Positions 11,798 to 46,935 of a DNA stretch of 48,406 nt are shown one piece after another. The stretch's first letter is position 1, and each line of letters starts with the position of its first letter. The notes under the pieces were generated by a model that was not told where the DNA came from, made no database searches, and worked only from the letters and a program-made list of their open reading frames with translations. The stretch is from a virus (lineage: Duplodnaviria; Heunggongvirae; Uroviricota; Caudoviricetes): the IMG/VR virus record IMGVR_UViG_2531839448_000004, one strand, 5' to 3'. The position numbers and the translations under genes were made by a program.

Positions 11798-12010
11798 TCA
11801 TGAAAGGTAAACATTGGCAGCTGAAGGGCCACGCAGACCATTTATCCGGCAAAATTCCACGCGTAATCCGGTGGTAATTTCTTCTGCATCGCGGAGATTG
11901 AGCGCTGAAACATGAAGCTGGACATCGATACGACCATCGGATGGGGTGATAAGACCCTTGCCGCTTTTGCCGTCAAAGGTTTTGACAATTCCTGTCATTT
12001 TACGGGACAA
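11798..12010 (-). CDS. cspF: Cold-shock protein family (CspF/CspH-like)
   Basis: [70 protein letters not shown]; divergent from cspB as in Qin. Confidence 0.75.
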
Positions 12011-12309
12011 AAAATTCCTTAATACTGATAACTTGGCGCACTATACACACGTTCCTGAAGAAAGCTATAGTTTTTTGATGGGGTTGAAGATGGCTGGATG
12101 TCTAAAATAAACATTGCTTCATATGTTCAACTATGCGTTAATGATTGCGTCGGTTTGAAGAACAGACGATATACGAAGTAGTTTACTAAAGCAGTTCTCA
12201 TTTCAGGTGTTATTCACTTATTCCTTCTTTGAGTCTCTCCAATTAAGTACGAAGTCGTTTCTGTTATGCAAACCATTTATGCCGAAAGGCTCAAGTTAAG
12301 GAATGTAGA

Positions 12310-12525
12310 ATGTCAAATAAAATGACTGGTTTAGTAAAATGGTTTAACGCTGATAAAGGTTTCGGCTTTATTTCTCCTGTTGATGGTAGTAAAGATGTGT
12401 TTGTGCATTTTTCTGCGATTCAGAATGATAATTATCGAACCTTATTTGAAGGTCAAAAGGTTACCTTCTCTATAGAGAGTGGTGCTAAAGGTCCTGCAGC
12501 AGCAAATGTCATCATTACTGATTAA
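12310..12525 (+). CDS. cspB: Cold-shock protein CspB
   Basis: [71 protein letters not shown]. Confidence 0.88.
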
Positions 12526-12807
12526 AATTCATCGCTCGTCTGTATACGATAACGAAGAAGGCTGATGCCTGAGTAGAGATACGGACAGAGTAGTGAATAT
12601 TGGATTTCTTTAATAAAAATTAAGGAGGTCCAATACATGAAACAATGGCCAGCATATTTGGCAAAATCTTAATCAGGAAAAGTATGCTAACCATTGTGGT
12701 GAAGTGCAGGTTTGCTGCATGAATAGTTTTACAGCAGAAGCTAACTGCTGGCATGGCAAAACAAAGTGCGTAAGTGGATGACTCCCACAAAAAGCACCAC
12801 AATCTCA

Positions 12808-12832
12808 AACCCGCTCAGGCGGGTTTTTTATT
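12808..12832 (+). terminator. Intrinsic terminator
   Basis: AAACCCGCtcagGCGGGTTTtttatt. Confidence 0.55.
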
Positions 12833-12888
12833 ATCTGCTTTAAATATATTATTAAAATATAAAAAATACTTGTTACTAATAAAATCAA

Positions 12889-13059
12889 TCAGGCTACAGC
12901 TTTAAGATTTGTCTGGAATACTTTGTTGCAATGAGGGCAGATCAAAAGGGCACCTTTTTGTACTCTTGAAAAACTGTGTTCTGACTCTTGGGTGCAGTTT
13001 GGGCAGGAACATTTAACGAGATAATTACGGCGTGATTTTGAGTCTTTACGTTCTGACAT
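12889..13059 (-). CDS. ynfU: Small zinc-ribbon protein (YnfU-like), 56 aa
   Basis: MSERKDSKSRRNYLVKCSCPNCTQESEHSFSRVQKGALLICPHCNKVFQTNLKAVA; paired CxxC motifs; symbol assigned from memory of Qin content. Confidence 0.5.
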   Translation of the reverse strand: MSERKDSKSRRNYLVKCSCPNCTQESEHSFSRVQKGALLICPHCNKVFQTNLKAVA

Positions 13060-14834: not shown

Positions 14835-15197
14835 GGTAATATTAAATCGGAACATTTACATCGCGGAATGTAAAATTTAAATAAAAAGGACTCTTCCATG
14901 AGCCAAAATTCCTGAAATCTTAAGGGTAAGATAAAAGGTCTTAATCAGAATGACACGTTATTATTAATAAATAAAGCTATTCTTTCATTGCTGTGTTTTT
15001 CTTTACAAAAGTAATCCTTGCTATGGGTGGTTAATCATGCGTTAATGGTGTTCTGGTTTGTTACAAATTTATCTGAAGCAGTCATTGTTATAATTTTATT
15101 ATTTGTACCTCTTGAGATTTCCTTGTTGGTTTTTCTCTCTGATATTTTTTTTCGGACCATTCTGCCCAAGGGCTAATTTCTTCAAAAGGTAATAATT

Positions 15198-15410
15198 ATG
15201 TCTAACAAAATGACTGGTTTAGTGAAATGGTTTAACCCTGAAAAAGGTTTTGGTTTCATCACGCCGAAAGATGGCAGCAAAGATGTGTTTGTCCATTTCT
15301 CAGCAATTCAGAGCAACGATTTCAAAACATTAACTGAGAATCAGGAAGTTGAATTTGGTATTGAGAACGGACCTAAAGGTCCTGCCGCTGTTCATGTAGT
15401 GGCGCTTTGA
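15198..15410 (+). CDS. cspI: Cold-shock protein CspI
   Basis: [70 protein letters not shown]. Confidence 0.9.
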
Positions 15411-15613
15411 GGTAGACAATATTACAAACCATATTCACTTTAGATGCCCGTGTTGTCATGGTTCCCAGTATAGAACATCATCTTTTGATGTTTCTGACAT
15501 GAATCCTTTCGGGGCAAAATGTATCTTTTGTAAATCAATGATGATTACATTTGATAATATTTCACAATACTTAAATGCCAGCCGTCTGTCGTTGGATTTA
15601 AAAAAGTGAAAAT

Positions 15614-15640
15614 GAAGGCTCCTTCGGGAGCTTTTTTGCT
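15614..15640 (+). terminator. Intrinsic terminator
   Basis: aAGGCTCCttcgGGAGCttttttgct. Confidence 0.65.
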
Positions 15641-15681
15641 TGGTATCTATTCGATGGATACTCACATACTACGGTAACATC

Positions 15682-15912
15682 ATGAAAAAAATCATAGTTT
15701 TTTTTAACTCTGAACCAGCAGTGGTAGTGCCAGCGATGACTGGAGTTAACACCATCATGCGTGAATATCCAAATGGCGAAAAAACACACCTTACTGTAAT
15801 GGCCGCAGGGTTTCCATCTCTGACCGGAGATCATAAAGTCATTTATGTAGCCGCGGATCGACATGTTACTTCAGAAGAAATTCTGGAAGCAGCAATAAGG
15901 CTCTTGAGTTGA
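15682..15912 (+). CDS. Hypothetical small protein
   Basis: 76-codon ORF from ATG 15682 (MKKIIVFFNSEPAVVVPAMTG...); no family recognised. Confidence 0.4.
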   Translation: MKKIIVFFNSEPAVVVPAMTGVNTIMREYPNGEKTHLTVMAAGFPSLTGDHKVIYVAADRHVTSEEILEAAIRLLS

Positions 15913-16080
15913 TTTGATGCTATTGTATTGATAATTCAGGAAAATTCTCTTTGTCTGTTTGTGTAAAATTTAGACTATCGTATGTTGATTATTGCGATGT
16001 TTCATCTTATCTTTTACACGTTTGCACCATATAATCGACTTACTGTGTAACTGGAAAGTCATAACAGACTAAAAGAGGAA

Positions 16081-16256
16081 ATGATGAATATTGAAAACTT
16101 AAAAACAAAAGCAGAAGCAGATATTTCTGAATATATAACAAAAAAATTATTGAACTTAAGAAAAAGACCGGGAAAGAAGTTACCAGTATTCAGTTTACCG
16201 CACGGGAAAAAATGACGGGTCTTGAAAGCTATGATGTCAAGATTAATTTAATCTGA
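16081..16256 (+). pseudogene. gnsB: gnsB-like gene with a -1 frame break inside an A6 tract
   Basis: N-terminal frame MMNIENLKTKAEADISEYITKK... stops after 44 codons (TGA 16213-16215); the GnsB-like C-terminus ...TGKEVTSIQFTAREKMTGLESYDVKINLI continues in the next frame after the aaaaaa run at 16141-16146. Confidence 0.55.
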
Positions 16257-16407
16257 TGTATTCAATAATAAAATTTATCCATAAACCTCGTTTTTACGGG
16301 GTTTTGTTATATTTGAATGGTTCCGAATATCTAAATCACAATTGTTGATGGTTTTTATTAAACCAATGCAGTCCGGCTCAGGAGTGAGAGAAGCCGGACG
16401 TTATGGT

Positions 16408-16818
16408 TTAGCGTGGTAAGATCTGTGTAGTTTTCTGGATGCTTTCAGTAAATAGTAATGAGTTATCAAAGGCATAGTAATATCTTTGGTGTTCCTGGAT
16501 ATTTGTAACCCATCGGAAAACTCCTGCTTTAGCAAGATTTTCCCTGTATTGTTGAAATGTGATTTCTTTTGATTTCAACTTATTATAGGAGGTCTCTATA
16601 AGATGTTTGTTTCTGGAGAATTTAACATTTACAACCTTTTTGAGTCCTTTTACTAACACTATGTTGTCGTTTTCTAACACAATGTGAATATTATCTGTGG
16701 CTAAATAGTAAATATAAAGTGAGATATTGTGACGTTTTAGCTCAGAATAAAATAATTCACAGTTTAAATCTTTACGCACTTGATCGAATATTTCTTTAAA
16801 AATGGCAGCCTGAGCCAT
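16408..16818 (-). CDS. ydfO: YdfO (DUF1398 family)
   Basis: [50 protein letters not shown]...; paralogous to the ORF at 48002-48406. Confidence 0.8.
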
Positions 16819-17118
16819 TGGTAAACCTTCCATGTGATACGATGGCGCGTAGTTTGCATTATCGTGTTTATTGTTTCAATCTGGTCTGACCTCTTTGTGT
16901 TTTGTTGATGATTTATGTCAAATATTAAGCCTGTTTTTAATGAATAGTGTTGATTGCGTAACAAAATTGAGCCTTGCTGGCATCCAGGAGGGATATGCAA
17001 CCGACAGATGTATGTAAGGTCGATGTACTCAAACTTTCATACTTTTCCTCTTTTATGCAGTAAGATTTGAAGTAATATTTTAACCGCTAGATGACGAGCA
17101 AACGCATGGAGCGACAAA

Positions 17119-27105: not shown

Positions 27106-27443
27106 CGCGGGAAATGCAGTTTGTCATGCGGCTTGCCCGGGAGTTCCGGCGGGCAGACTGGCGGCGGATGCTGTCGGAAATGTCGGCCACTGAGCTTGGT
27201 GAGTGGGGTGATTATTTCCGGATGCAGAGCTTCAGTGATGTGTGGATGGATGCGCAGTTTGCCTCGCTGAAGGCATTGATCGTGAGAATGGTGTCCGGCA
27301 GCAGTGATGCTGCGGTGGCTGATTTCAGCCTTTTACCGGAAGAGAACGGGATACCGGAGCGAACGGACGAAGAACTGATGCATCTTGGGGAAGGTATTTC
27401 CGGAGGTGTGCGTTATGGACCAGATAGCCAACCTGGTCATTGA
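27096..27443 (+). CDS. gpT-like segment, expected to be made only as a G-T fusion by -1 frameshifting near the end of G
   Basis: Open -1 frame overlapping the G terminus; A-rich slip-prone sequence CCGGAAAAG at 27091-27099 just before the G stop (27103-27105). Confidence 0.6.
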   Translation, partial: KVLTREMQFVMRLAREFRRADWRRMLSEMSATELGEWGDYFRMQSFSDVWMDAQFASLKALIVRMVSGSSDAAVADFSLLPEENGIPERTDEELMHLGEGISGGVRYGPDSQPGH

Positions 27444-30400
27444 TTTGGGGATTGATGCGGCAGAGTTTAAAAATGAAATTCCCCGTATCAAAAACCTTCT
27501 GAATGGTGCAGCCAGCGATGCAGAACGGTCTTCTGCCCGTATGCAGCGTTTTATGGAGCGTCAGACTCAGGCCGCCCGGCAGACAACGCAGGCAGCTTCT
27601 TCGGCTGCAACAGCCGCATCCGTCCATACGCAGACGGTGGAGAAGAACGCACAGGCTCATGAACGCATGGCCCGCGAGGTGGAGAAAACCCGCCAGCGCA
27701 TGGAGGCACTGAGTCAGAAAATGCGCGAGGAACAGGCGCAGGCCATGGCTCTGGCGGAGGCTCAGGATAAAGCGGCTGCTGCGTTTTATCGTCAGATTGA
27801 CAGTGTGAAACAGGCCAGTGCGGGGCTGCAGGAATTACAGCGTATTCAGCAGCAGATCCGACAGGCCAGAAACAGTGGCGGGATTGGTCAGCAGGATTAT
27901 CTGGCGCTGATTTCTGAGGTTACTGCGAAAACCCGTGTTCTTACACAGGCTGAGGAAGAGGCTACCCGACAGAAAGTGGCGTTTATCCGTCAGCTTAAAG
28001 AGCAGGCAACCCGCCTGAATCTTTCATCTTCTGAGTTGCTTCGTGCTAAGGCAGCCCAGCTGGGGGTAAGCAGTGCTGCAGAAGTGTATATCCGCAAAAT
28101 GGAGCAGGCAGGAAAAGCCACGCATTCGCTGGGTCTGAAAAGTGCAGCAGCCCGCCAGGAGATAGGCGTTCTGATAGGTGAACTGGCCCGCGGCAATTTA
28201 GGGGCGCTGAGGGGATCCGGGATAACGCTGGCTAACCGTGCCGGATGGATAGACACACTGATGTCACCGAAAGGCATGATGCTTGGCTGGGTTATTGGCG
28301 GTATTGCCGCGGCCGTCTATGGTCTGGGTAAAGCCTGGTATGACGGTCAGAAGGAGGGGGAAGAATTTAACCGCCAGTTGTCGCTGACGGGGCATTATGC
28401 CGGAGTCACTGCCGGGCAGCTGTGGACGCTCAGTCGTGCTATTTCCGGGAATGGTATCACGCAACATGCTGCAGCCGGTGCGCTGGCTCAGGTGGTGGGG
28501 AGTGGTGCATTTCGTGGAAACGATATCGGTATGGTGGCGAGAGCTGCCGCACAGATGGAGCGATCGGTTGGCCAGTCGGTCAGCGATACCATAAATCAGT
28601 TTAAGCGGCTGAAGGATGATCCTGTAAATGCCGCGAAGGCTCTGGACAATGAGCTGCATTTTCTTACTGCCACTCAGCTTGAGCAGATACGCGTCCTTGG
28701 GGAACAGGGGCGGTCCAGTGATGCGGCACGGATAGCCATGTCTGCACTGGCAGAGGAAACCGGTCGGCGTACTGCGGATATTGATAATAACCTCAATGCG
28801 CTGGGCAGTACGCTGAAGTATCTGTCTGATTTATGGAGTCGTTTCTGGGATGCGGCCATGAATATTGGTCGTGAAGACTCGCTGGATGAACAGATTTCCG
28901 CTTTACAGGAGAAAGTGTCGCGGGCGAAAAGACTCCCCTGGACGGCATCATCTTCTCAGGTTGAGTACGATCAGCAGCGTCTTAACGAGCTTCAGGAGAA
29001 AAAACGCCAGAAGGATTTGCAGGATGCAAAAGAGCAGGCAGAGCGGAATTATCAGGAGCAACAGAAACGCCGTAATGCTGAAAATGCTGCACTGAACCGG
29101 ATGAATGAAACGGAAGCAGCACGACATCAGCGTGAAATTGCGCGTATTAATGCCATGCAGTACGCCGATCAGGCTGTCAGGGATGCGGCGATACAACGTG
29201 AAAATGAACGTTACGAGAAAGCCCTGGCATCCGGTAAGAAAAAAACACGCGAACCCCGTAATGATGAGGCCACCCGGTTATTGCTGCAGTACAGTCAGCA
29301 ACAGGCACAGGTGGAAGGACAGATTGCTGCTGCCAGACAGTCAGCAGGCATTGCCACGGAAAGGATGACAGAAGCGCATAAACAGCTTCTGGCTCTGCAA
29401 CAGCGCATCAGCGACCTGGACGGGAAAAAACTGACGGCAGATGAAAAGAGTGTGCTGGCCCGTAAAGACGAACTGATTCAGGCACTGACGCTGCTGGATG
29501 TAAAACAGCAGGAGCTTCAGAAACAGACGGCACTCAACGAGCTGAAGAAAAAACAATTCAGCTGACCAGTCAACTGGCTGAAGAAGAGCGCGCTCAGCGT
29601 CAGCAACATGACCTGGATATCGCCACGGTGGGTATGGGTGATCAGCAGCGGCAGCGATATCAGGTACAACTGAGTCTTCGCCAGAAATACCAGCAACAGC
29701 TGGAGCAGTTGAGGCGGGATAGTGAGCAGAAAGGAACATATAACACGGATGACTACAGAAAGGCCGAGCAGGCGCTGACGGAGAGCCTGAACCGACAACT
29801 GAATGAGAATCGCCGTTACTGGCAACAGCTTGAAGTTGTGCAGGGTAACTGGAAAAACGGAGTCCTGCGTGCATTTCAGGATTTTACCGTGGATGCAGAT
29901 AATACGGCAGGAACAGCAGAACAGGTGTTCTCGTCAGCCTTCAGCAACATGGGAAATGGCCTGGCAACTTTTGTCACTACCGGCAAACTCAATTTCAAAT
30001 CCTTCACCTCTTCTGTGCTGTCAGATATGGCGAAAATCCTGGCGCAGGCAACCATGATGAAATCGATAAAAGGGATTGGCAGTGTACTGGGATTTGATCT
30101 CAGCAGCCTTTCCCTGAATGCCAATGGGGGATTTATCAGTCTGCTGATTTGAGTCGTTACAGTGGCACGGTGGTTAACCGTCCGACGTTTTTTGCTTTTG
30201 CAAAAGGCGCGGGTGTGATGGGGGAAGCGGGACCTGAAGCCATTCTGCCTCTGCGTCGTGGTGCTGACGGTAAGCTGGGGGTTGTGGCCGATATTGGTGG
30301 TTCAGGTATGGCGATGTTTGCCCCGCAGTACAACATCGAGATCAATAACGATGGCACGAACGGGCAGATAGGTCCGGCTGCCCTGAAGGTGGTTTATGAC

Positions 30401-36377: not shown

Positions 36378-36977
36378 ATGCGTAAAGTTTGTGCAGCCAT
36401 TTTGTCCGCAGCCATCTGTCTGGTCGTATCCGGTGCGCCTGCATGGGCGTCTGAACATCAGTCCACGCTGAGCGCGGGGTATCTTCATGCCTCGACGAAC
36501 GTTCCCGGCAGCGATGATCTTAACGGGATTAACGTGAAATACCGTTATGAGTTTACGGACACGCTGGGGATGGTGACGTCATTCAGCTATGCAGAAGACA
36601 AGAATCGCCAGCTGACTCATTACAGCGATACCCGCTGGCATGAAGATTCCGTGCGTAACCGCTGGTTCAGCGTGATGGCGGGGCCGTCTGTGCGCGTGAA
36701 TGAATGGTTCAGCGCGTATGCGATGGCGGGTGTGGCTTACAGCCGTATTTCGACTTTCTCCGGGGATTATCTCCGCGTAACTGACAACAAGGGGAAAACG
36801 CACGAAGTGCTGACCGGAAGTGATGACGGTCGCCGCAGCAACACGTCTCTGGCGTGGGGGGCTGGCGTGCAGTTTAACCCGACCGAATCCGTGGCCATTG
36901 ATATTGTTTATGAAGGCTCCGGCAGTGGCGACTGGCGCACTGACGGTTTCATCGTGGGTGTCGGTTATAAGTTCTGA
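36378..36977 (+). CDS. lom: Lom outer-membrane protein (Ail/Lom family)
   Basis: Signal peptide MRKVCAAILSAAICLVVSGAPAWA; beta-barrel pattern; C-terminal ...GVGYKF. Confidence 0.9.
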   Translation: MRKVCAAILSAAICLVVSGAPAWASEHQSTLSAGYLHASTNVPGSDDLNGINVKYRYEFTDTLGMVTSFSYAEDKNRQLTHYSDTRWHEDSVRNRWFSVMAGPSVRVNEWFSAYAMAGVAYSRISTFSGDYLRVTDNKGKTHEVLTGSDDGRRSNTSLAWGAGVQFNPTESVAIDIVYEGSGSGDWRTDGFIVGVGYKF

Positions 36978-37031: not shown

Positions 37032-37041
37032 TGGGGTGAAT

Positions 37042-40000
37042 ATGGCAGTAAAGATTTCAGGTGTACTGAAAGACGGTGCAGGTAAACCGGTACAGAACTG
37101 CACAATCCAGCTGAAAGCAAAACGTAACAGCACCACGGTGGTGGTGAACACGCTGGCATCTGAAAATCCGGATGAAGCAGGGCGTTACAGCATGGACGTT
37201 GAGTACGGTCAGTACAGCGTTATTCTGTTGGTGGAAGGATTCCCGCCGTCACATGCCGGGACCATCACAGTGTATGAAGATTCCCGACCCGGTACGCTGA
37301 ATGATTTTCTCGGTGCCATGACGGAGGATGATGCCCGTCCGGAGGCACTGCGCCGTTTTGAGCTGATGGTGGAGGAGGTGGCGCGTAACGCGTCCGTGGT
37401 GGCACAGAACACGGCAGCCGCGAAGAAGTCAGCCAGTGATGCCAGCACATCAGCCCGTGAGGCGGCAACCCATGCGACTGATGCTGCAGGCTCAGCACGC
37501 GCAGCCAGCACGTCAGCCGGACAGGCCGCGTCGTCGGCTCAGTCAGCGTCTTCCAGCGCAGGAACGGCATCAACAAAGGCCAGTGAAGCATCGAAAAGTG
37601 CTGCTGCTGCAGAGTCCTCAAAAAGCGCGGCGGCCACCAGTGCCGGTGCGGCGAAAACGTCAGAAACGAATGCGGCAGCGTCACAACAATCAGCCGCCAC
37701 TTCTGCATCCACCGCGACCACGAAAGCGTCAGAAGCTGCCACCTCAGCCCGGGATGCGGCGGCCTCAAAAGAGGCAGCGAAATCATCAGAAACGAACGCA
37801 TCATCAAGTGCCAGTAGTGCAGCTTCCTCGGCAACGGCGGCAGGAAATTCCGCGAAGGCCGCAAAAACGTCTGAGACGAATGCAGATAACAGCGCACAGG
37901 CGGCAGCGGCCTCACAAACTGCATCGGCAAACTCCGCGACAGCAGCCAAAAAATCAGAAACCAACGCGAAAAATAGCGAGGCAGCAGCAAAGAGCAGCGA
38001 AACAAACGCTAAAGCCAGCGAAACTAATGCTAAATCCAGTGAAACAAACGCGGCGAAATCTGCGGCGGACGCACTTAATTATCGCAACCAGGCGCAAGTA
38101 ATTGTAGGCGATAATATCGGTCTTGGCTCAGCACCGCGTGATTGTCCTGATATTTCCGGCAACCCATCAGGGTATATCGGATTTATGCGCATTATGAGTA
38201 ATGCAAAAGGCTTTCCATCGATTGCATCCGGTGAAAGCAGTCTTACGGGGTTTATTAGTCAGGTAGATGGAACACCAGCGTATACAGGTGTATTTCAGGG
38301 ATGGGCTACGCGCTCGCTTTATACTTATCGCTGGAATCCGACAATAGGCCCGCAGTGGACGCGTCACGCAAGAAAAGATGAAGTGGACAGGCTTACTCAA
38401 CTAACAGGTAATACACGCGTATATTGTCAAAATGCAAGCAAATTTTTTGGTATCTACGATTCAGGAACATGGGGTTATTACGATGCAGAGAATAGCGAAT
38501 GGATTCCGCTTTCGATCGCGGCCGGAGGTACTGGTGCGGCAACTATTGATGGTGCCAGAACGAATCTTGGCTTAGGTAGGAACAACAGCCCTCAACTTAA
38601 CAGTCTATTTCTTGATAGATATAGTGATTCGACCAATACATACACATCTAGTGGAATTCTCCATACAAGACTGTTAGCAACTGACAGCACTGTGCGTCTT
38701 GGTGCTGATATGTATGTTGAGACTTTATCAAATGAGCCAGGTCAATTAACAATAAGGTTTACATACGATGGTTCAACTGGTGCTTCAAAATATCTAAACC
38801 TTAACTCAGAAGGTAATTTAATTGTAGATAGTGCGATACTGAGATCAACGGTTGAAAAACCTTTACAAATAAGGAGCGCTAACCCAGCAATAAGATTTAA
38901 TGAAACAGATCGCCCGGCTAACACGCCTACTTATACTCTCATTGCTAATGCTGGCGACTGGTTTATTCAGAAACGCGATTATGATGATGCCGGAAGCGTT
39001 AGTAACGCAATTGCATATAATTTCGCAAACGACAGAATTGATGTGCAAAATCTTAAAGCGTCTGGGTTAATTACAGCTAACTCAGGAATCGCAACATTAA
39101 CAGGTCATGACTGGAACTCTCAGCATACTGATAACGTCGACAAATTTAGACCAATCGCAGGCAGTACAAACGGCCCGGCAGGCTCTATGGTTCTTGGCGG
39201 CATTCATGTTCAATTTAGTAAAAATTATGCTGTGCAGTTCGGAGGCCGCAATTCCGGTTTTTGGGGAAGAACAATTGAAAATGGAACGACGCAGGAATGG
39301 AAGAAATTACTAACAGTAGACGATCTCAATTCATCTACCGATCTTGCTGTCAGGTCATTAACCACATCTAACCCGGTAAAATCTGGCGGAGGGCGAATTG
39401 ATGTCCTTGGAAGCACGTCAGACTATAGCAAAATGGATTGCTTTGTACGTGGGTTTGATAGCACCGGTAATTCTCTCGCGTGGGCGTTGGGTTCATCAGT
39501 CGGCGTAAGTAAGATGCTGTCGCTAAAAAATTTCTTTAGCGGAGCTGAGATACTGCTAAATGGTAATGACGGCGCGGTTCAACTCAAAACAGGTGCTGTT
39601 AACGGGGCTAAAGCGCAGGCGCTCACTATCAACAAGGATGAGGTTAACTCAACTGTTGATTTAACTCTTACAAAACAAACAGGGACTGGAAATCGTTTTG
39701 TTTTACAGAACTTAGGTAATACAGAACTATCATTTGCCGCAAAAGTATGGGGATCAAGTGATCGACAAAACGTTTTTGAGGTTGGAACGTCTGCTGCGTA
39801 TCTGTTTTATGCGCAAAAAACGTCAGCAGGCCAGTTGTTTGATGTAAATGGCGCTATTAATTGCACAACGCTGAATCAGTCATCAGACCGCGACCTTAAA
39901 GACGATATTCTCGTTATCAGCGACGCGACGAAAGCAATCCGTAAAATGAACGGATACACCTACACGCTCAAGGAAAACGGGATGCCTTATGCTGGCGTTA

Positions 40001-40317
40001 TTGCACAGGAAGTAATGGAGGCGATACCAGAAGCTGTGGGATCGTTTACTCATTATGGTGAAGAGTTGCAAGGTCCGACCGTTGACGGCAACGAGCTACG
40101 CGAAGAAACTCGCTATCTTAATGTTGACTACTCCGCCGTGACGGGTTTACTTGTTCAGGTCGCCCGTGAAACAGATGATCGCGTTACCGCGCTGGAAGAG
40201 GAAAACACAACGCTACGTCAAAATCTGGCAACAGCAGGCACCCGGATCAGCACTCTGGAAAATCAGGTAAGCGAACTGGTTGCACTTGTCCGGCAGTTAA
40301 CAGGAAGCGAACATTGA
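37042..40317 (+). CDS. Side tail fibre protein with Ala/Ser-rich repeat collar and C-terminal intramolecular-chaperone (S74-like) domain
   Basis: N-terminus MAVKISGVLKDGAGKPVQNCTIQLKAKRNSTTVV...; C-terminal ...DRDLKDDILVISDATKAIRKMNGYTYTLKENGMPYAGVIAQEV... is chaperone-domain-like. Confidence 0.85.
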   Translation: MAVKISGVLKDGAGKPVQNCTIQLKAKRNSTTVVVNTLASENPDEAGRYSMDVEYGQYSVILLVEGFPPSHAGTITVYEDSRPGTLNDFLGAMTEDDARPEALRRFELMVEEVARNASVVAQNTAAAKKSASDASTSAREAATHATDAAGSARAASTSAGQAASSAQSASSSAGTASTKASEASKSAAAAESSKSAAATSAGAAKTSETNAAASQQSAATSASTATTKASEAATSARDAAASKEAAKSSETNASSSASSAASSATAAGNSAKAAKTSETNADNSAQAAAASQTASANSATAAKKSETNAKNSEAAAKSSETNAKASETNAKSSETNAAKSAADALNYRNQAQVIVGDNIGLGSAPRDCPDISGNPSGYIGFMRIMSNAKGFPSIASGESSLTGFISQVDGTPAYTGVFQGWATRSLYTYRWNPTIGPQWTRHARKDEVDRLTQLTGNTRVYCQNASKFFGIYDSGTWGYYDAENSEWIPLSIAAGGTGAATIDGARTNLGLGRNNSPQLNSLFLDRYSDSTNTYTSSGILHTRLLATDSTVRLGADMYVETLSNEPGQLTIRFTYDGSTGASKYLNLNSEGNLIVDSAILRSTVEKPLQIRSANPAIRFNETDRPANTPTYTLIANAGDWFIQKRDYDDAGSVSNAIAYNFANDRIDVQNLKASGLITANSGIATLTGHDWNSQHTDNVDKFRPIAGSTNGPAGSMVLGGIHVQFSKNYAVQFGGRNSGFWGRTIENGTTQEWKKLLTVDDLNSSTDLAVRSLTTSNPVKSGGGRIDVLGSTSDYSKMDCFVRGFDSTGNSLAWALGSSVGVSKMLSLKNFFSGAEILLNGNDGAVQLKTGAVNGAKAQALTINKDEVNSTVDLTLTKQTGTGNRFVLQNLGNTELSFAAKVWGSSDRQNVFEVGTSAAYLFYAQKTSAGQLFDVNGAINCTTLNQSSDRDLKDDILVISDATKAIRKMNGYTYTLKENGMPYAGVIAQEVMEAIPEAVGSFTHYGEELQGPTVDGNELREETRYLNVDYSAVTGLLVQVARETDDRVTALEEENTTLRQNLATAGTRISTLENQVSELVALVRQLTGSEH
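37600..38060 (+). repeat. In-frame tandem repeats encoding reiterated A-K-(S/T)-S-E-T-N-A motifs within the tail-fibre gene
   Basis: Repeated peptide units AAKTSETNAAAS, AKSSETNASSSAS, AKTSETNADNSAQ, KKSETNAKNSEAAAKSSETNAKASETNAKSSETNAAKSA. Confidence 0.8.
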
Positions 40318-40353
40318 TATCCTTCAAGCCCTGAAGGAGGCTGTTCCTGGTAC

Positions 40354-40488
40354 GTTCAGACTGTTGCTGAGCTGGAGATCGCAACGGAGGAAGAGAAAGC
40401 GTTTCTGGCCGCATGGAAAACATATCGGGTATTGCTGAACCGTGTTGATACAGTAAACCCCGTCTGGCCTCCACCTTCGAAGCGATAG
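40354..40488 (+). pseudogene. Tail-fibre assembly (Tfa) C-terminal remnant
   Basis: Reads [43 protein letters not shown], resembling conserved Tfa C-termini; no start codon and no N-terminal part; in frame directly after the stf stop. Confidence 0.6.
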
Positions 40489-40792
40489 CCCAGCAACTCC
40501 TAAATAGCTGCGCATAATACCGCTACACCTGCCGTTTTACTGACATTTGGAATATTGCGTGAGGGCAACATATCGAGGGGCAGATACAGCTCGGTCAAAT
40601 AGAAAAACAGCCCCACTATTTACCATGCAATAGCTGGTCAAAAGGAGAGCACTATTCCGCTCCGCGTAGTATTTTGTGTTTATAGTGATAACTTAGGTAA
40701 TGCTTAGTCACTAAGATACTTTGCTATTGGAGAGCGATTTATAATGTGGGCGCAACAGATTTTTACTATTGCGCCACTTGCTCTTGTGAGTA

Positions 40793-41881
40793 CTATTCGC
40801 TATAAGTTAATGTTGGTTTTGAAAGTCTTTTGGATATTGTTTTTCCGATATTAATGAATGGAGTTTCAATATATTTATAAATAAAGAATGATAAGAACAA
40901 GCTAAGAGCAATAATGAATGAAAACTTAGAGAACCCAGGTTTTTCATAAAGCGGAATGAAATCCTTAAAATTAATTAAAAATAGCATTACTATCGCATGG
41001 GATAAATACAGAGAGTAAGAGATATCACCTAGCTTACTGAGTATTTTATTTTCCCTTAATCCGAAGTTAACTTCATAAAGTAAAACTCCCGTAATTATGG
41101 AGGCTGCCCACAATCCGAAGTTTAAAGGGCCATGACCAAATCTGAATTGATAAAAATATGAGCAAACACCAAATGAAACCAAAAGGAATGATATCGCCTT
41201 TGCGTTTTTTATATATTTAAATTTTCTGTGTATTATATACAGAAACATCCCATAAACGAATTCTAACAGCATGGGTGATGACATTAAGTTTAGAAAGCCA
41301 ATATGCCAATGACCTGTATCACCAATCGTAAACTTACTTGATAGAGAAAGGCTGTTGGAAAATTTCAACTGTATGAGAAGTAGCGGGACTATCAATGCAA
41401 TAACTGATATTAATAATCTGTTTTTATGACTCAGCGATATTGCAAGCATAAAAATGAAATAAAAATAGACTTCAAAGGTTAATGTCCATGCTGGATAAAG
41501 CACGTTGTATCCGAAGAATGGCGCTTCTGAATAATAGTCCAGGTGAAGCAGAAACAATGAACGCAATAATTCACTTTCGGTGAAGACTGGGTTCAATAAA
41601 AAGAATAAGATTGTGCAAATGAAAAATACAGGGTAAATCCTGAAAAAACGCCTGGTCATAAAGTTAATAGGGGAATTTGTTTCTTTTTTTTGACTCGATA
41701 ACATTATTATAAATCCACTTATAATAAAAAACAGATCAACCCCAAAACCACCACTAATAAACAATAAATCACCTAGATCTTTTTGTGCGTAAACTTCATT
41801 TAGGTATTGTTTATTGTGATATGCAACAACGAGTAATGCTGCTACACCTCGCAAATAGTGAATTGATTTTACCTTCTTCAT
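40793..41881 (-). CDS. Acyltransferase-3 family membrane protein (OafA/Oac-like O-antigen acetyltransferase candidate)
   Basis: 362 aa, polytopic, markedly AT-rich; N-terminal YLRGVAALLVVAYH motif typical of acyltransferase-3 proteins. Confidence 0.75.
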   Translation of the reverse strand: MKKVKSIHYLRGVAALLVVAYHNKQYLNEVYAQKDLGDLLFISGGFGVDLFFIISGFIIMLSSQKKETNSPINFMTRRFFRIYPVFFICTILFFLLNPVFTESELLRSLFLLHLDYYSEAPFFGYNVLYPAWTLTFEVYFYFIFMLAISLSHKNRLLISVIALIVPLLLIQLKFSNSLSLSSKFTIGDTGHWHIGFLNLMSSPMLLEFVYGMFLYIIHRKFKYIKNAKAISFLLVSFGVCSYFYQFRFGHGPLNFGLWAASIITGVLLYEVNFGLRENKILSKLGDISYSLYLSHAIVMLFLINFKDFIPLYEKPGFSKFSFIIALSLFLSFFIYKYIETPFINIGKTISKRLSKPTLTYSE

Positions 41882-42319
41882 TTTTATATAATCACTGTTC
41901 CAATTTTTTTATTTTACAAACAATTCTATCTAGCTCATTAGTACTCAAAGTCAGATTGGTAGCAATAAAAAAACAAGATATGTGATGACATGGCGCGGGG
42001 CTCAGAACCACTCGTGTATTTTCGCCACTGGCTATGACTGGCTGCACCTGCAAGATCTGCCATTTGTGTGCCAGTATACCCAAGCTCTGACTTTATGTTT
42101 ACCAGATCCTCTGGAGTGCCGGGGAGTATAATCGTTGATTAATCGAATCTGCAACTATTTCAGAACGACCTAGGTTAAAGTGCGCTCTGCAGTCTCTTAT
42201 ATAAGGTGATACTTTAATTGTCTGGAAACTGGACAGGTTAGGAAGGAGCAGGAAACATCTTATTATACTTACCGAGTAGCTGCGGGTAAGGGGGGGATTT
42301 CCGTAGCCTGACAGGTAAC

Positions 42320-42594
42320 ATTGACACGTCAACATCGATGGTTTTTTTTATTTTTCCATGTGATGGAGCCCTGGTTGAAATGAAGCGTGAACTGATTGAT
42401 GACTGAACAAAAGTTGGACTGGAAGATGCTCGCGCACAGGGAGGAATTGGTGGACGTCGTCCTAAACTTACATCAGAACAATGGGCGCAGGCCGGGCGAT
42501 TAATTGCATCAAAAGTCCCGCGTCAGAAGGTGGCGATCATCTATGATATTGGTGTATCGACTTTGTATAAGAGGTTTCCAGCCAGGATTATATA
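42320..42594 (+). pseudogene. Decayed C-terminal fragment of a Pin/Hin-family serine DNA invertase
   Basis: Frames give ...GALVEMKRELIDD* then ...GGIGGRRPKLTSEQWAQAGRLIASKVPRQKVAIIYDIGVSTLYKRFPARII*, matching the invertase C-terminal HTH region, with in-frame stops and frame changes; catalytic N-terminus absent. Confidence 0.65.
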
Positions 42595-42918
42595 AAACTG
42601 CAGACACGCCGTATGCAAGACGTGCTGCGGTTGGTTGATGCACTTTCGAGAGTGTATGTATTGAATAATTTCCAACCGTCATTAATTTTATTTATTTTTT
42701 GCATGAGAGGATTTGAACCTCCGAGCCTCGACACCTTATGACAACGCGATATTCCCTTGATGACCGCTATGCGCCAAAATAACCAATTGATAAATAAGTT
42801 GATTTTAATTGGTTGGAAGCAAGTCAGGTCAAATTCAGCATGCCGCTCTCTGTATCGGGTAGTTAAATTTTTCTATAACTGATAGTAATATGTTAAAACT
42901 CACACAGATAAATTATCA

Positions 42919-44901
42919 TTGCTCAACAAGTATAATGGAGTTCCCGTGGATACAGCAGAACATGATGGCAAATTTGCTTGGGCTAGTTTTTATGAGGCTT
43001 TTGCCAACGCGTTACTGACTTGGCGAAATCGTAGAGATGAATTAGTCAAAGGTATTCATCTAATTGCCTCAGGTGTGGAAGGAATGTCCCATCTGCAGGA
43101 CAAATCTATTATGGGAGAGATCTTTCCCTTAAAAGACATTTGTCCGTTTACTACTATGGGCTTGTTCAATCGTAACTTGACCGACAGCAATCGCAAAATT
43201 ATTGCTGCCAAGCTAGCGAATTTGTTGGGCGTGAACGAACCGATTCCTGACTCCTTTGCCGGAATCCCGCTGTTGAATAACCAAAAATCTTGGTTCTTTG
43301 GTTATGAAAAGTCACGCGACCCTAATGACATTGAATGCTTGTGGGAAATGTTCTCGCAGGCAATGACCTTTGCGGATAACCAGAATACTAACTCTGCAGA
43401 CTTCACTGCCGCATATGACATCGCTTCTACAGTAATGAATGTCGGTTGGAATCTCACCATGGGGTTGTACTGGACCCGTCCTTGGTTCTACCCTACTTTA
43501 GATAGCCAGTCGCAGTATTACATTCAGACAGTGTTAAACATTAAGATCATTAAAAACGGGGCAAAAGGTCGCTGTAGTGGACAAAGTTACCTGAGTCTTA
43601 TGCGGGCGCTGAACGAGGTCTTTACCCAACCAAACTATCCGGTTCATTCTTTCCCAGAACTTTCTTTATCAGCGTGGAATACAGATCTTAGCCAGTCTAA
43701 AGATGAGGTGGCAAATAGAACGTGGAAAGCCTCTTTACTGAATAAAATTAAGGCGTTATGCCTGAAAAAAAATGGCCCTTATTTCACTGCTTCGGAGTTG
43801 GAAGAAAACTACTTGGACGTATTCAAGGTAGAGCATCCTGAGAGCAAAACAGTTACAAGCTCAATCTACTTTTATCTACAGAAACTATGCAATGATGATG
43901 AGTTAAAGTCCCTTGAGTCCGGAAATTATGAATACCTGAATTTTGAGAAAAACGAATCCCAGACGATAACTGAGGAAACTGTCGAAGAGAGTGCGCCGTT
44001 GCCAAAACTCACTCACGTTCCTTATGACATCAGTCATCTGGTGCAGGATGGCTGTTTCTTGGAAGAGGCTAAGATCCAACTCACACTTCAGCGCCTGATC
44101 GACAAGAAAAACCTGATATTACAAGGACCACCCGGAACTGGAAAAACCTGGTTAGCGCGACGTCTGGCGTACTGCTTGATGGGAGAAAAAGCACCTGAGC
44201 GTATTAGCGCGGTGCAATTTCACCCGAACCTCTCTTACGAAGACTTTATTCGCGGCTGGCGTCCAGGTAAAGAAGGGCAATTGACGCTAATTGATGGACC
44301 TTTTGTAAATGCAATCAAAACTGCAGTCAATAATCCTACCTCGAAATATGTGGTGATAATTGAAGAGATTAATCGTGGCAATCCGGCGCAAATCTTCGGT
44401 GAAACACTCACGTTGATGGAAGCAGATAAACGCACGCCGACTGAGGCATTATCTCTTTCCTATCCTAAAAATGATGATGAAAAAATATACATTCCTGAGA
44501 ATCTATATATCATCGGTACGATGAATATTGCAGACCGCTCACTCGCACTACTTGACCTAGCGCTGCGCCGTCGTTTCGCGTTTATCGATCTAAAGCCAGC
44601 TTTTAATGACGCGTGGAGAAACTGGGTAAATTATAATTACGCAATTGATTTTGACATGTTAGCATTCATCAAATCTCGACTGACGGTACTTAACGATATG
44701 CTGGCAAAAGATGTTACCTTAGGACCACAGTTTTGTATCGGTCACAGCTATGTCACCCCAGCTATCGGCCAAAAAATCAACGATGCCCAGGCTTGGTATG
44801 AACAAGTCGTTGATACAGAGATCTGCCCTTTGCTCGCCGAATATTGGTTCGATGCTCCAAATAAAGTCGATGAAGCCAGAAAAGTGTTATTAGCAAAATG
44901 A
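42919..44901 (+). CDS. McrB-like AAA+ GTPase with a long (~400 aa) N-terminal region of unrecognised type; start codon uncertain (TTG 42919 or GTG 42946)
   Basis: C-terminal motifs LILQGPPGTGKTW, VVIIEEINRGNPAQIFGETLTLMEADKR, YIIGTMNIADRSLALLDLALRRRFAF match the McrB GTPase family; ATGA overlap with the downstream McrC-like gene. Confidence 0.75.
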   Translation: MLNKYNGVPVDTAEHDGKFAWASFYEAFANALLTWRNRRDELVKGIHLIASGVEGMSHLQDKSIMGEIFPLKDICPFTTMGLFNRNLTDSNRKIIAAKLANLLGVNEPIPDSFAGIPLLNNQKSWFFGYEKSRDPNDIECLWEMFSQAMTFADNQNTNSADFTAAYDIASTVMNVGWNLTMGLYWTRPWFYPTLDSQSQYYIQTVLNIKIIKNGAKGRCSGQSYLSLMRALNEVFTQPNYPVHSFPELSLSAWNTDLSQSKDEVANRTWKASLLNKIKALCLKKNGPYFTASELEENYLDVFKVEHPESKTVTSSIYFYLQKLCNDDELKSLESGNYEYLNFEKNESQTITEETVEESAPLPKLTHVPYDISHLVQDGCFLEEAKIQLTLQRLIDKKNLILQGPPGTGKTWLARRLAYCLMGEKAPERISAVQFHPNLSYEDFIRGWRPGKEGQLTLIDGPFVNAIKTAVNNPTSKYVVIIEEINRGNPAQIFGETLTLMEADKRTPTEALSLSYPKNDDEKIYIPENLYIIGTMNIADRSLALLDLALRRRFAFIDLKPAFNDAWRNWVNYNYAIDFDMLAFIKSRLTVLNDMLAKDVTLGPQFCIGHSYVTPAIGQKINDAQAWYEQVVDTEICPLLAEYWFDAPNKVDEARKVLLAK

Positions 44902-46018
44902 CGACAATAACCGGGAGTGAGCAACATACAGCATCACGTATTCCCATGCGAAATATCTGGATGCTGATGCTGTACGCTTCAGATCTGTTTCGTCAGTTAG
45001 GGCGCAATCAGATCGCAGTAGAAGATAACCCAGCAGAAATCCCCGACCTGGTGGCGACAATCCTCCTTCATGAGATTACGCTGCGCCGACGTCGCAATTT
45101 AAATATGGGATACCAAACTTGTCATGCGGCCCTGAACCGGGTGAGAGGGCGCATTGACATACTGTATACTGCCAGTCATCAACTACTGGAACGGGGACAG
45201 GTTGCCTGCCATTTTCAAGACATAACCCTCAACACCCCCCGAAATCGCTATGTTCGCTGTGCGTTAGAACGTCTGGCCTCAATCATAGTGAAACCGTCTT
45301 TGGCGGCAGATTGCCATTTTATGGCAATATCACTTCGCCGTGAGGGGATAAATGGAGGATATCCTGCCCCCACGAATTACCCTCAGTGTGGCGTTTTGGA
45401 CGCCATGATGCCGCAGATAAACCGATGGTCGATGCCGCACGATTAGCTTTTGAACTGCTGATGCCGACCGAAGATCAAGGCCAATATCTTTTACCTGCGC
45501 CCTCAAATAACCTTTACTGGATGAGAAGACTATTTGAAAAAGGTATCGCTGGCTTATATCGTGTACACCTTGCCAAAACAACTTGGCAGGTCTCTGCAGG
45601 GAAAGAGCTGAAATGGGCGTTGAGCGATCAAAGTGCAGGTAGTGCAGAGATTTTCCCGACAATGAAGTCAGACATTATTCTGGAACACAAGACTGCCCAG
45701 CGGCGTATTATTATCGATACCAAATTTAATTCGATTCTGACAAAGGGTTGGCATCGGGAGCAATCACTACGTAATGGCTATATTTATCAGCTATATACCT
45801 ACCTTAGAACACAGGAGAACAAGACGGATCCGCTTTCGCTCAATGCCGCTGGTCTTCTACTTCATCCAGCTGTTGGCTATATGCTTAATGAGTATGTTGT
45901 CACTCAGGGACATAAGATCCATTTTGCTACAGTAGATATGACGGTAGATGCTAAAGCAATTAAAAAACAATTGCTGGCAATAGCCCATGATTGTGCAGGA
46001 GTCGCGGTTGATGACTAA
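44898..46018 (+). CDS. McrC-like nuclease subunit, split into two frames (44898-45446 and from about 45344 to 46018)
   Basis: N-terminus ...IPMRNIWMLMLYAS... (McrC: IPVRNIYYMLTYAW); second frame carries the D-x-K nuclease core RIIIDTKF and YIYQLYTYL (McrC: ILIVDAKYY, NLYQLMNYL). Confidence 0.6.
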
Positions 46019-46715
46019 CCATCCTATAAGGCACTGGCTGTAATATAATCAATAGTTTCAATTAAGTAGCTGTTATCCGTGCTTAGTCATCATATGACGC
46101 ACCACGGTCTAATTTTCCTGCTCATACATTGATATATCCTTGTCGAGCCCGGAAAGTCGCAGTCCACTATTAGGTATACCGATTGCCAGCACCAAAAGCT
46201 TCTTTGTAATTATTATATCGGGGAATGCCTATTTTTTAGTGACAATATCAGATAGCAATTAATAAGCGGTGCCGGTAATGGATGTTATGTTTAATGTATA
46301 GATACAGTCATCATAAACTAAACGTCTGTTGTTCGCTCATAACCGACATTTATCTCAGTTATGGAAGATAATTATGTATGCAGATAATGGGGCAGACAGT
46401 CGTGGAGTAAACAAGGTTTTGCACTGATTGGCGGCATCGTTATCTTATTTTTAATTATGTGCCTCTTAACATAAGTTGGGACAAAACAGAGACACATAAG
46501 GTCTCACAAAGGTCTGCAAGGCCTCACATGTATTGAGGTGTTAATAAAATGTAGACTTGTAATTTGGATATAAATGGTAGAGAAAACCTTTCCCCAAAAT
46601 AAAAACGAACGTCAATGAAATCAAACGGTTGAATAAAGTTGATTTTGGCTAATAAAAAACAATAAAATATTTTTATGATTAAATATCAATGACTTGAACT
46701 TAATGTTTTTATATA

Positions 46716-46880
46716 CTGTTACGCCATATGGGTTGGACTGAAGCGGCTGACCTGATTGTTAAAGGTATGGAAGGCGCAATCAATGCCAAGACCGTAACCT
46801 ATGACTTCGAACGTCTGATGGAAGGCGCTAAATTGCTGAAATGTTCAGAGTTTGGTGACGCGATCATCAAGAATATGTAA
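46716..46880 (+). pseudogene. icdC: 3' fragment of isocitrate dehydrogenase gene icd (prophage attR duplication)
   Basis: Translation [54 protein letters not shown] matches the Icd C-terminus; no upstream icd sequence. Confidence 0.8.
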
Positions 46881-46903
46881 TCTCTCCATGTGTTAAATAT
46901 TGA

Positions 46904-46935
46904 AACGGGCGTATAACACGCCCGTTGTTTTATTT
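46904..46935 (+). terminator. icd-type intrinsic terminator
   Basis: AACGGGCGTataacACGCCCGTTgttttattt. Confidence 0.7.

Follow-up and report, generated by a model that had tools for sequence, protein, structure and literature searches.

An acyltransferase-3 gene in the tail-fibre region of a lambdoid Escherichia coli prophage as a candidate modifier of surface polysaccharide

We analysed the gene at positions 40793–41881 (minus strand) of a 48,406-nucleotide (nt) stretch of viral DNA, hereafter the window, from the IMG/VR record IMGVR_UViG_2531839448_000004 (Caudoviricetes). The gene is intact, retains the motifs of the acyltransferase-3 (AT3) family, shows purifying selection, belongs to a module of phage origin, and is linked to a receptor-binding gene. 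We consider it somewhat likely that its product is an active AT3-only O-acyltransferase that is expressed from the prophage and acts on a surface polysaccharide, most probably the O-polysaccharide, with the O8 polymannan as a candidate, and that the enzyme would alter the surface epitope and phage recognition.

The open reading frame (ORF) starts with ATG and comprises 1089 nt encoding 362 amino acids (aa). The six-frame ORF list contained it at exactly the coordinates given in an initial annotation of the window, and no other ORF of at least 50 aa spanned the same interval. The Pfam profile PF01757 (Acyl_transf_3) matched residues 5–335 at profile positions 2–325 of 326 (E = 2.6e-34, 119.2 bits against a cut-off of 31), and PHROG 3333, described as ‘O-acetyltransferase’, matched at E = 2e-71. 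To examine the catalytic residues, the protein was aligned with five experimentally characterised enzymes whose sequences came from annotated records (Sf6 Oac, phiV10 Oac, E. coli WecH and OpgC, and the AT3 domain of phage D3 Orf28) and with six relatives from its own subfamily. R11, H22, F51, I54, S55, G56, R81, W132, G211, and Y292 were invariant in the alignment, and R78 and H295 were nearly invariant. The R/K-X10-H pair of the first transmembrane helix (TMH1) was present as R11-X10-H22, the FFxISG motif of TMH2 as F51 F52 I53 I54 S55 G56, and the RxxR motif as R78 and R81. Furthermore, H22 was invariant and R11 at least 90% conserved across 74 subfamily members. These three motifs have been found invariant or essential in OafA and Oac (Pearson et al., PMC7448272).

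An AlphaFold2 model built with 74 relatives was all-helical (pLDDT 94.5, pTM 0.92) and predicted about ten long helices (residues 5–22, 36–62, 71–96, 129–150, 155–175, 205–218, 227–244, 255–273, 288–304, and 317–354). The top two Foldseek matches were weak and were both human HGSNAT (8jkv/8vly; E = 0.027, TM 0.37), a protein that a recent paper groups with the AT3 proteins in a single transmembrane acyltransferase superfamily (PMC12423673). A PDB sequence search with the acyltransferase gave zero matches, which indicates that no close AT3 relative has a solved structure. PF01757 was the sole Pfam domain in the protein; the C-terminal SGNH/GDSL domain was absent, and no SGNH gene was found among the called neighbours within the window. 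The absence of the SGNH domain places the protein in the AT3-only class (Oac, WecH, and OpgC) and not in the OafA class. The ORF encodes a full-length AT3 protein with all of the motifs that are essential in the characterised enzymes. The initial annotation had described a polytopic protein of this family, which the full-length profile match and the all-helical model bear out, and the catalytic-residue check that it had named beforehand found the conserved residues on alignment. Its label ‘OafA/Oac type’ was loose: the AT3-only architecture is that of Oac, but the protein is not an AT3-SGNH protein like OafA and is an orthologue of neither. A role as a defence-system component was also considered and rejected, as PADLOC does not recognise the acyltransferase as a known one.

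The identities to the characterised AT3 enzymes were 19–24% (Sf6 Oac, 24%; D3 Orf28 AT3 domain, 24%; phiV10 Oac, 19%; WecH, 19%; and OpgC, 19%). In a BLASTP comparison with Sf6 Oac, only the N-terminal 186 residues aligned (29%, E = 7e-10), and neither Sf6 nor phiV10 was recovered by tblastn with the acyltransferase at E 1e-5. At this level of identity, the gene is not an orthologue of Oac, OacB–D, or phiV10 Oac. Oac of the Shigella phage Sf6 and OacB–D, which are O-antigen O-acetyltransferases of serotype-converting phages, resemble the protein in being AT3-only, about 330–360 aa in length, and equipped with R/K-X10-H, FFxISG, and RxxR; moreover, Sf6 oac is convergent with the gene of the receptor-binding protein, just past it, and close to the end of the prophage. 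However, the prophage of Sf6 is P22-like, whereas those carrying the present gene are lambdoid or P2-like. In the E. coli O157 phage phiV10, oac likewise lies on the opposite strand directly past the tail-fibre gene, although phiV10 is an epsilon15-like podovirus; its oac is annotated as acetylating the host O-antigen and conferring superinfection immunity (PMC9558356). In regards to the AT3-SGNH fused proteins, namely OafA and OafB (GtrC family II) of Salmonella and Orf28 of Pseudomonas phage D3, the AT3 domain and the essential residues are as in the present protein. The protein also carries the GG-F-x-G-V-D motif (G44–D49) described as typical of the fused proteins (Pearson et al., PMC7448272), but it has neither the SGNH domain nor the eleventh helix and ends at residue 362. 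The chromosomal AT3-only enzymes of E. coli K-12, WecH and OpgC, share the fold class and motifs and differ in occupying housekeeping loci with normal GC content and in using enterobacterial common antigen (ECA) and periplasmic glucans, respectively, as acceptors.

The prophage AT3 subfamily of PHROG 3333 (P0002–P0120 in our set, and Pseudomonas Detrevirus IME307) was 35–54% identical over the full length and equal in length, recurrently occupied a position adjacent to tail-fibre genes, and sometimes had the same small upstream ORF. Literature searches gave no member of this subfamily with a demonstrated substrate, and the RefSeq accession of the acyltransferase (WP_000756238) was cited by no paper in the search. 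The gene would work in the manner of the Oac-type serotype-converting acetylases and shares their genomic logic without being an orthologue of any of them. The Kapi1 study was set aside as a precedent, as it found no AT3 gene to account for the O-antigen change that it reports.

A 1.8-kb module (40368–42159) containing the 3′ end of the tail fibre assembly gene tfa, a spacer, the acyltransferase gene, and a small ORF was shared with a P2-like prophage. The blastn identity was 90.8% over 1795 columns to positions 10511–8723 of locus L025, and the module also matched locus L026. The 94%-identical protein P0126, from an assembly labelled Klebsiella variicola, is encoded in a P2-like prophage next to smpB, between the tail-fibre-assembly and tail sheath genes. 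The shared block takes in the last ~110 nt of tfa, and the left junction of the module is located inside this gene. The tfa gene is a recognised recombination point among tailed phages. At the DNA level, neither the 50,697 isolated phage genomes searched nor plasmids yielded a match to the module, and searches for direct or inverted repeats and Pin crossover sites around the gene gave only short repeats at chance level. The lack of flanking repeats, transposase, and plasmid copies, together with the junction in tfa, indicates phage-to-phage cargo and not a stray insertion. It arrived within this 1.8-kb block, which P2-like and lambdoid prophages have exchanged through recombination in tfa. Chance insertion of a transposon or genomic islet into the prophage would explain the sharp drop in GC content and the frequent insertions of the insertion sequences (IS) IS1 and IS3 in and around the gene; we regard such an origin as highly improbable, since the module holds a phage tfa 3′ end, sits adjacent to tfa in the P2-like prophage as well, and encodes a protein with relatives on 431 viral contigs of IMG/VR.

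The acyltransferase gene of the window and the P2-like copy were 93.0% identical in DNA and 93.9% identical in protein. The Nei-Gojobori estimates between them were dS 0.28 and dN 0.026, and the dN/dS value of 0.094 indicates that the protein was under purifying selection over this divergence. The intact module has an 87-aa ORF ending 2 nt before the acyltransferase start codon; in other intact copies this ORF ends 2 nt upstream or overlaps. An intact 87-aa ORF precedes the genes of both P0126 and P0002, and an ORF of 59 aa was called ahead of P0005. The 87-aa ORF gave only sub-threshold matches to Xre-like helix-turn-helix (HTH) families in Pfam. In the window, the corresponding sequence (41882–42159, minus strand; aligned to L025 8721–9003) is a pseudogene that has lost its ATG and acquired three 1-nt indels. 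Four lesions thus lie in the adjacent 278 nt, and the 1089-nt acyltransferase ORF is untouched.

The gene lies beside the side tail fibre gene stf (37036–40317, plus strand), which encodes a lambda Stf-type N-terminus, an Ala/Ser-rich shaft, and a C-terminal S74 intramolecular chaperone (Pfam phage_tail_N, E = 2.5e-71; Peptidase_S74, E = 4.7e-13). The two genes are convergent, and the acyltransferase gene lies 475 nt past the stf stop codon (40317) on the opposite strand. The closest phage relative of the fibre was the side tail fibre of phage mEp460 (85% identical), in which dinI occupies the slot after stf; the listed host of mEp460 is just E. coli. Homology of the fibre to T5 pb1, considered as an argument for polymannose binding, was rejected: in the PDB sequence search, the phage S16 fibre was matched through its S74 chaperone and nothing else was hit, a result that does not bear on the receptor. 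The interval between stf and the acyltransferase gene consists of a 173-nt 3′ remnant of tfa without its N-terminus (40318–40490, plus strand; RefSeq annotation of strain CV839-06) and a 302-nt spacer (40491–40792). Matches to tfa in more than 2000 E. coli genomes were confined to approximately the first 141 nt of a query starting at 40318, and the sequence from 40368 onward was collinear with the Caudo_TAP gene of the P2-like prophage. The spacer was seen only in gene-carrying genomes and in L025 and L026, and it contained no ORF of at least 50 aa and no terminator-like site. At 40257–40457 (plus strand), over the end of stf and the tfa remnant, the Rfam family IS009 (RF02111) gave a sub-threshold match (69 bits against a gathering threshold of 117, E = 7e-15), which probably reflects homology to the K-12 prophage region that defined this candidate RNA.

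The right junction of the module falls at a pin-type invertase pseudogene (42149–42607, plus strand) that lacks its N-terminus and has frameshifts and an internal stop codon (RefSeq, CV839-06); K-12 pinE was 75.7% identical over 42204–42607. Together, the pin pseudogene and the tfa remnant suggest that the S74-type fibre and the acyltransferase module took the place of an ancestral, invertible segment of tail-fibre sequence. Visual inspection had pointed to a tRNA fragment at about 42690–42770, but it was dismissed, since both ARAGORN and Rfam were negative. Further right, a duplicate of the icd 3′ end (46714–46931, plus strand) marks attR at the e14 site, as judged by blastn to K-12 icdC and the icd 3′ end and by the icd fragment followed by iraM in CV839-06. 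The acyltransferase gene is 4.8 kb from attR. In CV839-06, whose locus is 99% identical, the RefSeq order is lambdoid tail genes, gpJ, Lom, stf, tfa remnant, acyltransferase gene (opposite strand), pin pseudogene, McrB-like AAA ATPase, McrC, icd fragment, iraM, ycgX, and bluR. In a megablast search of 5426 complete E. coli genomes, 32, among them CV839-06, had the arrangement of the window at 99.6% identity or higher. The acyltransferase gene occupies the cargo slot that separates stf from attR in a lambdoid prophage integrated at icd, the e14 site. It is prophage-borne, lies by a receptor-binding gene and near the attachment site, and is transcribed apart from the late operon, a layout like that of Sf6 and phiV10.

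The GC content of the ORF was 32.2% (32.0% at third codon positions), compared with 53.6% for the structural region 17884–40317 and 48.0% for the whole window, and the low-GC island extends from about 40640 to 41975. These values and the convergent orientation agree with the initial annotation, which had reported foreign composition and opposite-strand placement by receptor-binding genes. Other parts of that description needed adjustment. The gene is downstream of the tail-fibre genes but not directly so, given the intervening tfa remnant and spacer; the claim of AT-rich flanks held for the right side (41882–41975, 24.5% GC) but not for the left spacer (42.7% GC); and the low GC content is not unique within the prophage, in which 12001–13000 and 15001–17000 are also AT-rich (33–37% GC). 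Three cold-shock-protein (csp) paralogues and a DUF1398 gene are found in these stretches (11798–12010, minus; 12310–12525, plus; 15198–15410, plus; and 16408–16833, minus), which indicates that the acyltransferase gene is not the sole compositionally foreign cargo of the prophage.

Among the 50,697 isolated phage genomes, the best match was 35.7% identical and was encoded by a D3-like Pseudomonas phage just past its tail-fibre genes. In a collection of 5.8 billion proteins, the 90% cluster of the acyltransferase itself contained 364 sequences, nearly all labelled E. coli, and one member occurred on at least 1000 contigs; outside this cluster the identity fell to 54% or less (Serratia, Erwinia, Enterobacter, Citrobacter, and Salmonella). 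A protein search of the GTDB species representatives gave a distant Bacillus match only, because the E. coli representative does not have the gene.

Ten genomic contexts of relatives were read. P0002, P0003, and P0005 (52–54%) and P0126 were encoded beside baseplate, tail-fibre, or tfa genes in prophages of Mu-like, P2-like, or other myovirus type. P0035 (48%, E. coli) lay between a prophage lysis cassette and the gene of a 735-aa protein, and P0119 (42%, E. coli) lay between the tailspike and integrase genes of a P22-like prophage, which is the position of oac in Sf6. P0012 (47%, Erwinia) adjoined a gtrA-gtrB-type glucosylation cassette, P0086 (44%, Salmonella) was the last gene in an O-antigen cluster just before gnd-ugd-wzz, and P0010 (48%) was located in a flagellar region beside a GDSL lipase gene and a second AT3 gene. 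On the IMG/VR contigs of at least 30 kb, 41 of 53 relatives were within 5 kb of a contig end (24% expected, p = 6e-16), with the predicted prophage borders being uncertain. These contexts suggest that most of the subfamily is carried by phages as cargo in linkage with genes for receptor binding, and that its non-phage members are tied to O-antigen loci. They provide the main argument for the O-antigen as the acceptor, as an association and not as proof. Esterase-type genes were also observed next to some relatives (L013 4749–6623, L003 4079–7938, and L014 6136–6831); their products are a 624-aa protein with a faint GDSL match, a polysaccharide deacetylase, and a GDSL lipase, a hint that some prophages or islands may couple the addition of acetyl groups with their removal.

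By analogy with the family, the protein would be a ten-helix protein of the inner membrane, in which an acyl group, most likely acetyl from cytoplasmic acetyl-CoA, may be taken through a pore via the Arg/His pair of TMH1 and the arginines of RxxR and passed to a hydroxyl group of a polysaccharide on the periplasmic face. The most probable acceptor would be the O-polysaccharide of lipopolysaccharide, before or after its ligation to lipid A-core, and the genome association described below points to the his-linked O8 polymannan. Such a modification would alter the O epitope and the surface met by O-antigen-binding phages. The initial annotation had proposed lysogenic conversion of this kind. The Sf6- and phiV10-like layout, the contexts of the relatives, the low dN/dS value, and the O8 enrichment speak for the proposal, which we retain as a conditional reading.

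The acyltransferase gene was present in 42 of the 5426 complete E. coli genomes, with 26 intact-looking copies, 14 disrupted copies, and 2 vestiges, as judged by hit length, number of pieces, and annotation. Three carriers of unrelated source, MRE162 (UK, human), VCSW7 (Hong Kong, soil), and A23 (Venezuela, capybara), all contained a his-linked O8-family polymannan cluster (manC, manB, wzm, wzt, a methyltransferase gene, and mannosyltransferase genes). These three strains (O-antigen regions L027, L030, and L031, respectively) have, besides O8, complete and differing wzx/wzy clusters between galF and gnd, of the O104, O155, and O133 families, respectively; such dual-cluster strains probably make two surface polymers, and their in-silico serotyping would be ambiguous. 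The O8 wzm-wzt genes occurred in 308 of the 5426 genomes (5.7%). We used a chimeric query composed of the acyltransferase region and O8 wzm, for which the matching places per record show the presence of both; as a control, five carriers already known as O8 gave two places, as expected. O8 wzm was found in 24 of the 39 listed carriers (odds ratio of about 31 against the rest). Twenty-one of the 26 intact copies were in O8 genomes and 5 in non-O8 genomes, and the corresponding numbers for 13 disrupted copies were 3 and 10 (Fisher p = 0.001, or 0.016 once evident clones had been roughly merged). These figures make the O8 polymannan a suggestive and testable lead for the acceptor and not a result. 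The O5 polysaccharide of Klebsiella, the labelled genus of the P2-like copy, has the structure of E. coli O8. A bolder version, which we advance tentatively as a rather doubtful proposition, is that the enzyme O-acylates the ABC-transporter-exported O8 polymannan, a homopolymer for which acetylation is not usually described, and stays intact only where this substrate exists, with decay of the gene once the prophage enters a non-O8 background or its host changes to one; on this view, recombination within tfa would carry the module between prophages of myovirus and siphovirus type as a ‘receptor-masking’ cassette matched to host range.

An active enzyme might instead use another envelope glycan, such as ECA, the K or O polymer of the galF-gnd cluster, colanic acid, the lipopolysaccharide core, or periplasmic glucans. 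The AT3-only proteins of E. coli include WecH and OpgC, to which the identity of 19% is comparable with the 19–24% to the Oac enzymes; the three O8 carriers inspected differ in their wzx/wzy clusters; P0010 has its GDSL lipase and AT3 neighbours in a flagellar region; and the near-identical copy in the assembly labelled Klebsiella variicola would fit a widely shared acceptor. However, the non-prophage relatives lie in an O-antigen cluster or by gtrAB and the prophage-borne ones by receptor-binding proteins, the skew between intact and disrupted copies tracks the O8 cluster and not the variable galF-gnd cluster, and wecH and opgC, both of which K-12 has, are presumably present in the hosts already. 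We consider another glycan an unlikely acceptor and continue to favour the O-polysaccharide.

Several observations weigh against an active and expressed O-polysaccharide acyltransferase. In regards to the acceptor, the sugar is not readable from homology, as the nearest characterised enzyme is at most 24% identical in the alignments. Strain ET745 has an O10-family cluster and no polymannan genes, yet carries an intact copy, and common descent among the carriers confounds all of the O8 counts (MRE162 is represented by three sub-strains, and there are groups of enterotoxigenic E. coli from pigs and pairs of isolates). An E. coli O-antigen review mentions only gtr-bearing prophages and has nothing on prophage acetylases or O8 acetylation. 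We know of no description of the canonical O8 structure as O-acetylated. In regards to the gene pool, five of the 14 disrupted copies are interrupted by IS1 and one by IS3, four share an identical 1-nt deletion, and the other four are truncated. Approximately 200 further genomes have an IS1-bounded deletion that ends at about 41914, 33 nt upstream of the start codon, and that removes the gene and most of the prophage, with the pin remnant and the McrBC-like genes remaining. The disruptions and deletions indicate that the gene is dispensable and often lost.

The expression signals and the state of the prophage point in the same direction. Apart from the decay of the upstream ORF into a pseudogene, the alignment with the intact module extends just 12 nt beyond the start of that ORF before it gives way to the pin remnant; the native promoter region of the module is therefore absent from the window. 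A consensus scan gave 10 promoter-like sites, compared with 8.0 ± 2.5 in shuffled sequences, and a terminator scan of the acyltransferase locus found none. One 9/12 promoter match lies inside the dead ORF (42101–42073, minus strand) and has no statistical weight, and the ribosome-binding site, read from the sequence, looks weak. Expression of the acyltransferase in the lysogen of the window is accordingly a presumption drawn from sequence. The prophage itself appears to be decaying and is probably defective, with a split tape-measure gene and IS elements. The tape-measure region (27385–30152, plus strand) is divided into a 726-aa ORF (TMP_2 and TMP_4) and a 174-aa ORF in another frame that corresponds to the lambda tape-measure C-terminal domain; tails are probably not built unless the split is a sequencing error.

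These properties would also be expected if the gene were a silent relic in this window, an intact ORF in a dying prophage that is unexpressed and without present effect. In addition to the lost upstream ORF and promoter region and the lack of promoter or terminator signals above chance, this explanation draws on the split tape measure, the IS elements, the pin pseudogene, the frameshifted mcrC, the disruption of a third of the copies, and the ~200 genomes that lost the gene but keep the McrBC-like genes. In E. coli, H-NS commonly silences foreign DNA that is AT-rich. Against a silent relic, the ORF has remained intact while the adjacent 278-nt ORF took four lesions, and 26 of the 42 copies are intact and concentrated in O8 hosts. 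Identity among the copies in E. coli is 99.4% or higher, and they are therefore too young for decay to inform either way. We regard a silent relic as improbable and retain the expressed enzyme as the preferred reading.

Phage-borne O-antigen acetylases alter serotype, vaccine epitopes, and phage susceptibility, and they have been worked out in Shigella, Salmonella, and Pseudomonas and sparsely in E. coli. As such enzymes are already familiar, the points of interest here are the O8 association and the tfa-linked module that a P2-like and a lambdoid prophage share. The subfamily comprises hundreds of enterobacterial prophage relatives, none of them characterised as far as the searches went, and the characterisation of one member would inform the annotation of many prophage genes. 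Strains of O8 include clinically important lineages; if the O8 link is true, O8 typing sera, O8-targeting phages, and glycoconjugate designs must allow for an acetylated variant. If it is false, the locus is still a clean example of tfa module exchange and selective decay in a cryptic prophage.

Other features of the prophage were also observed. Lom (36378–36977) is a further surface-protein cargo gene. A McrBC-like pair (42919–46018, plus strand) occupies the slot of mcrA in K-12 e14. The first gene of the pair encodes a 660-aa AAA_5 ATPase, of which residues 378–654 match McrB (NCBIfam E = 7.6e-79, below the equivalog cut-off) and the N-terminal ~380 residues, outside this match, form a different domain. 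Compared with two other strains, the mcrC gene in the window lacks 1 nt near 45366, which splits it into 44898–45446 and 45386–46018. The window starts inside an IS3-family transposase gene (1–932) that is 99.9% identical to the IS3 copy in CV839-06, and a second transposase-like ORF with HTH and rve_3 domains is located at 5352–6692. The right 17.6 kb of the window is 99.3% identical to the CV839-06 prophage, whereas the left 30.8 kb is non-homologous to it, which indicates that the prophage is a mosaic.

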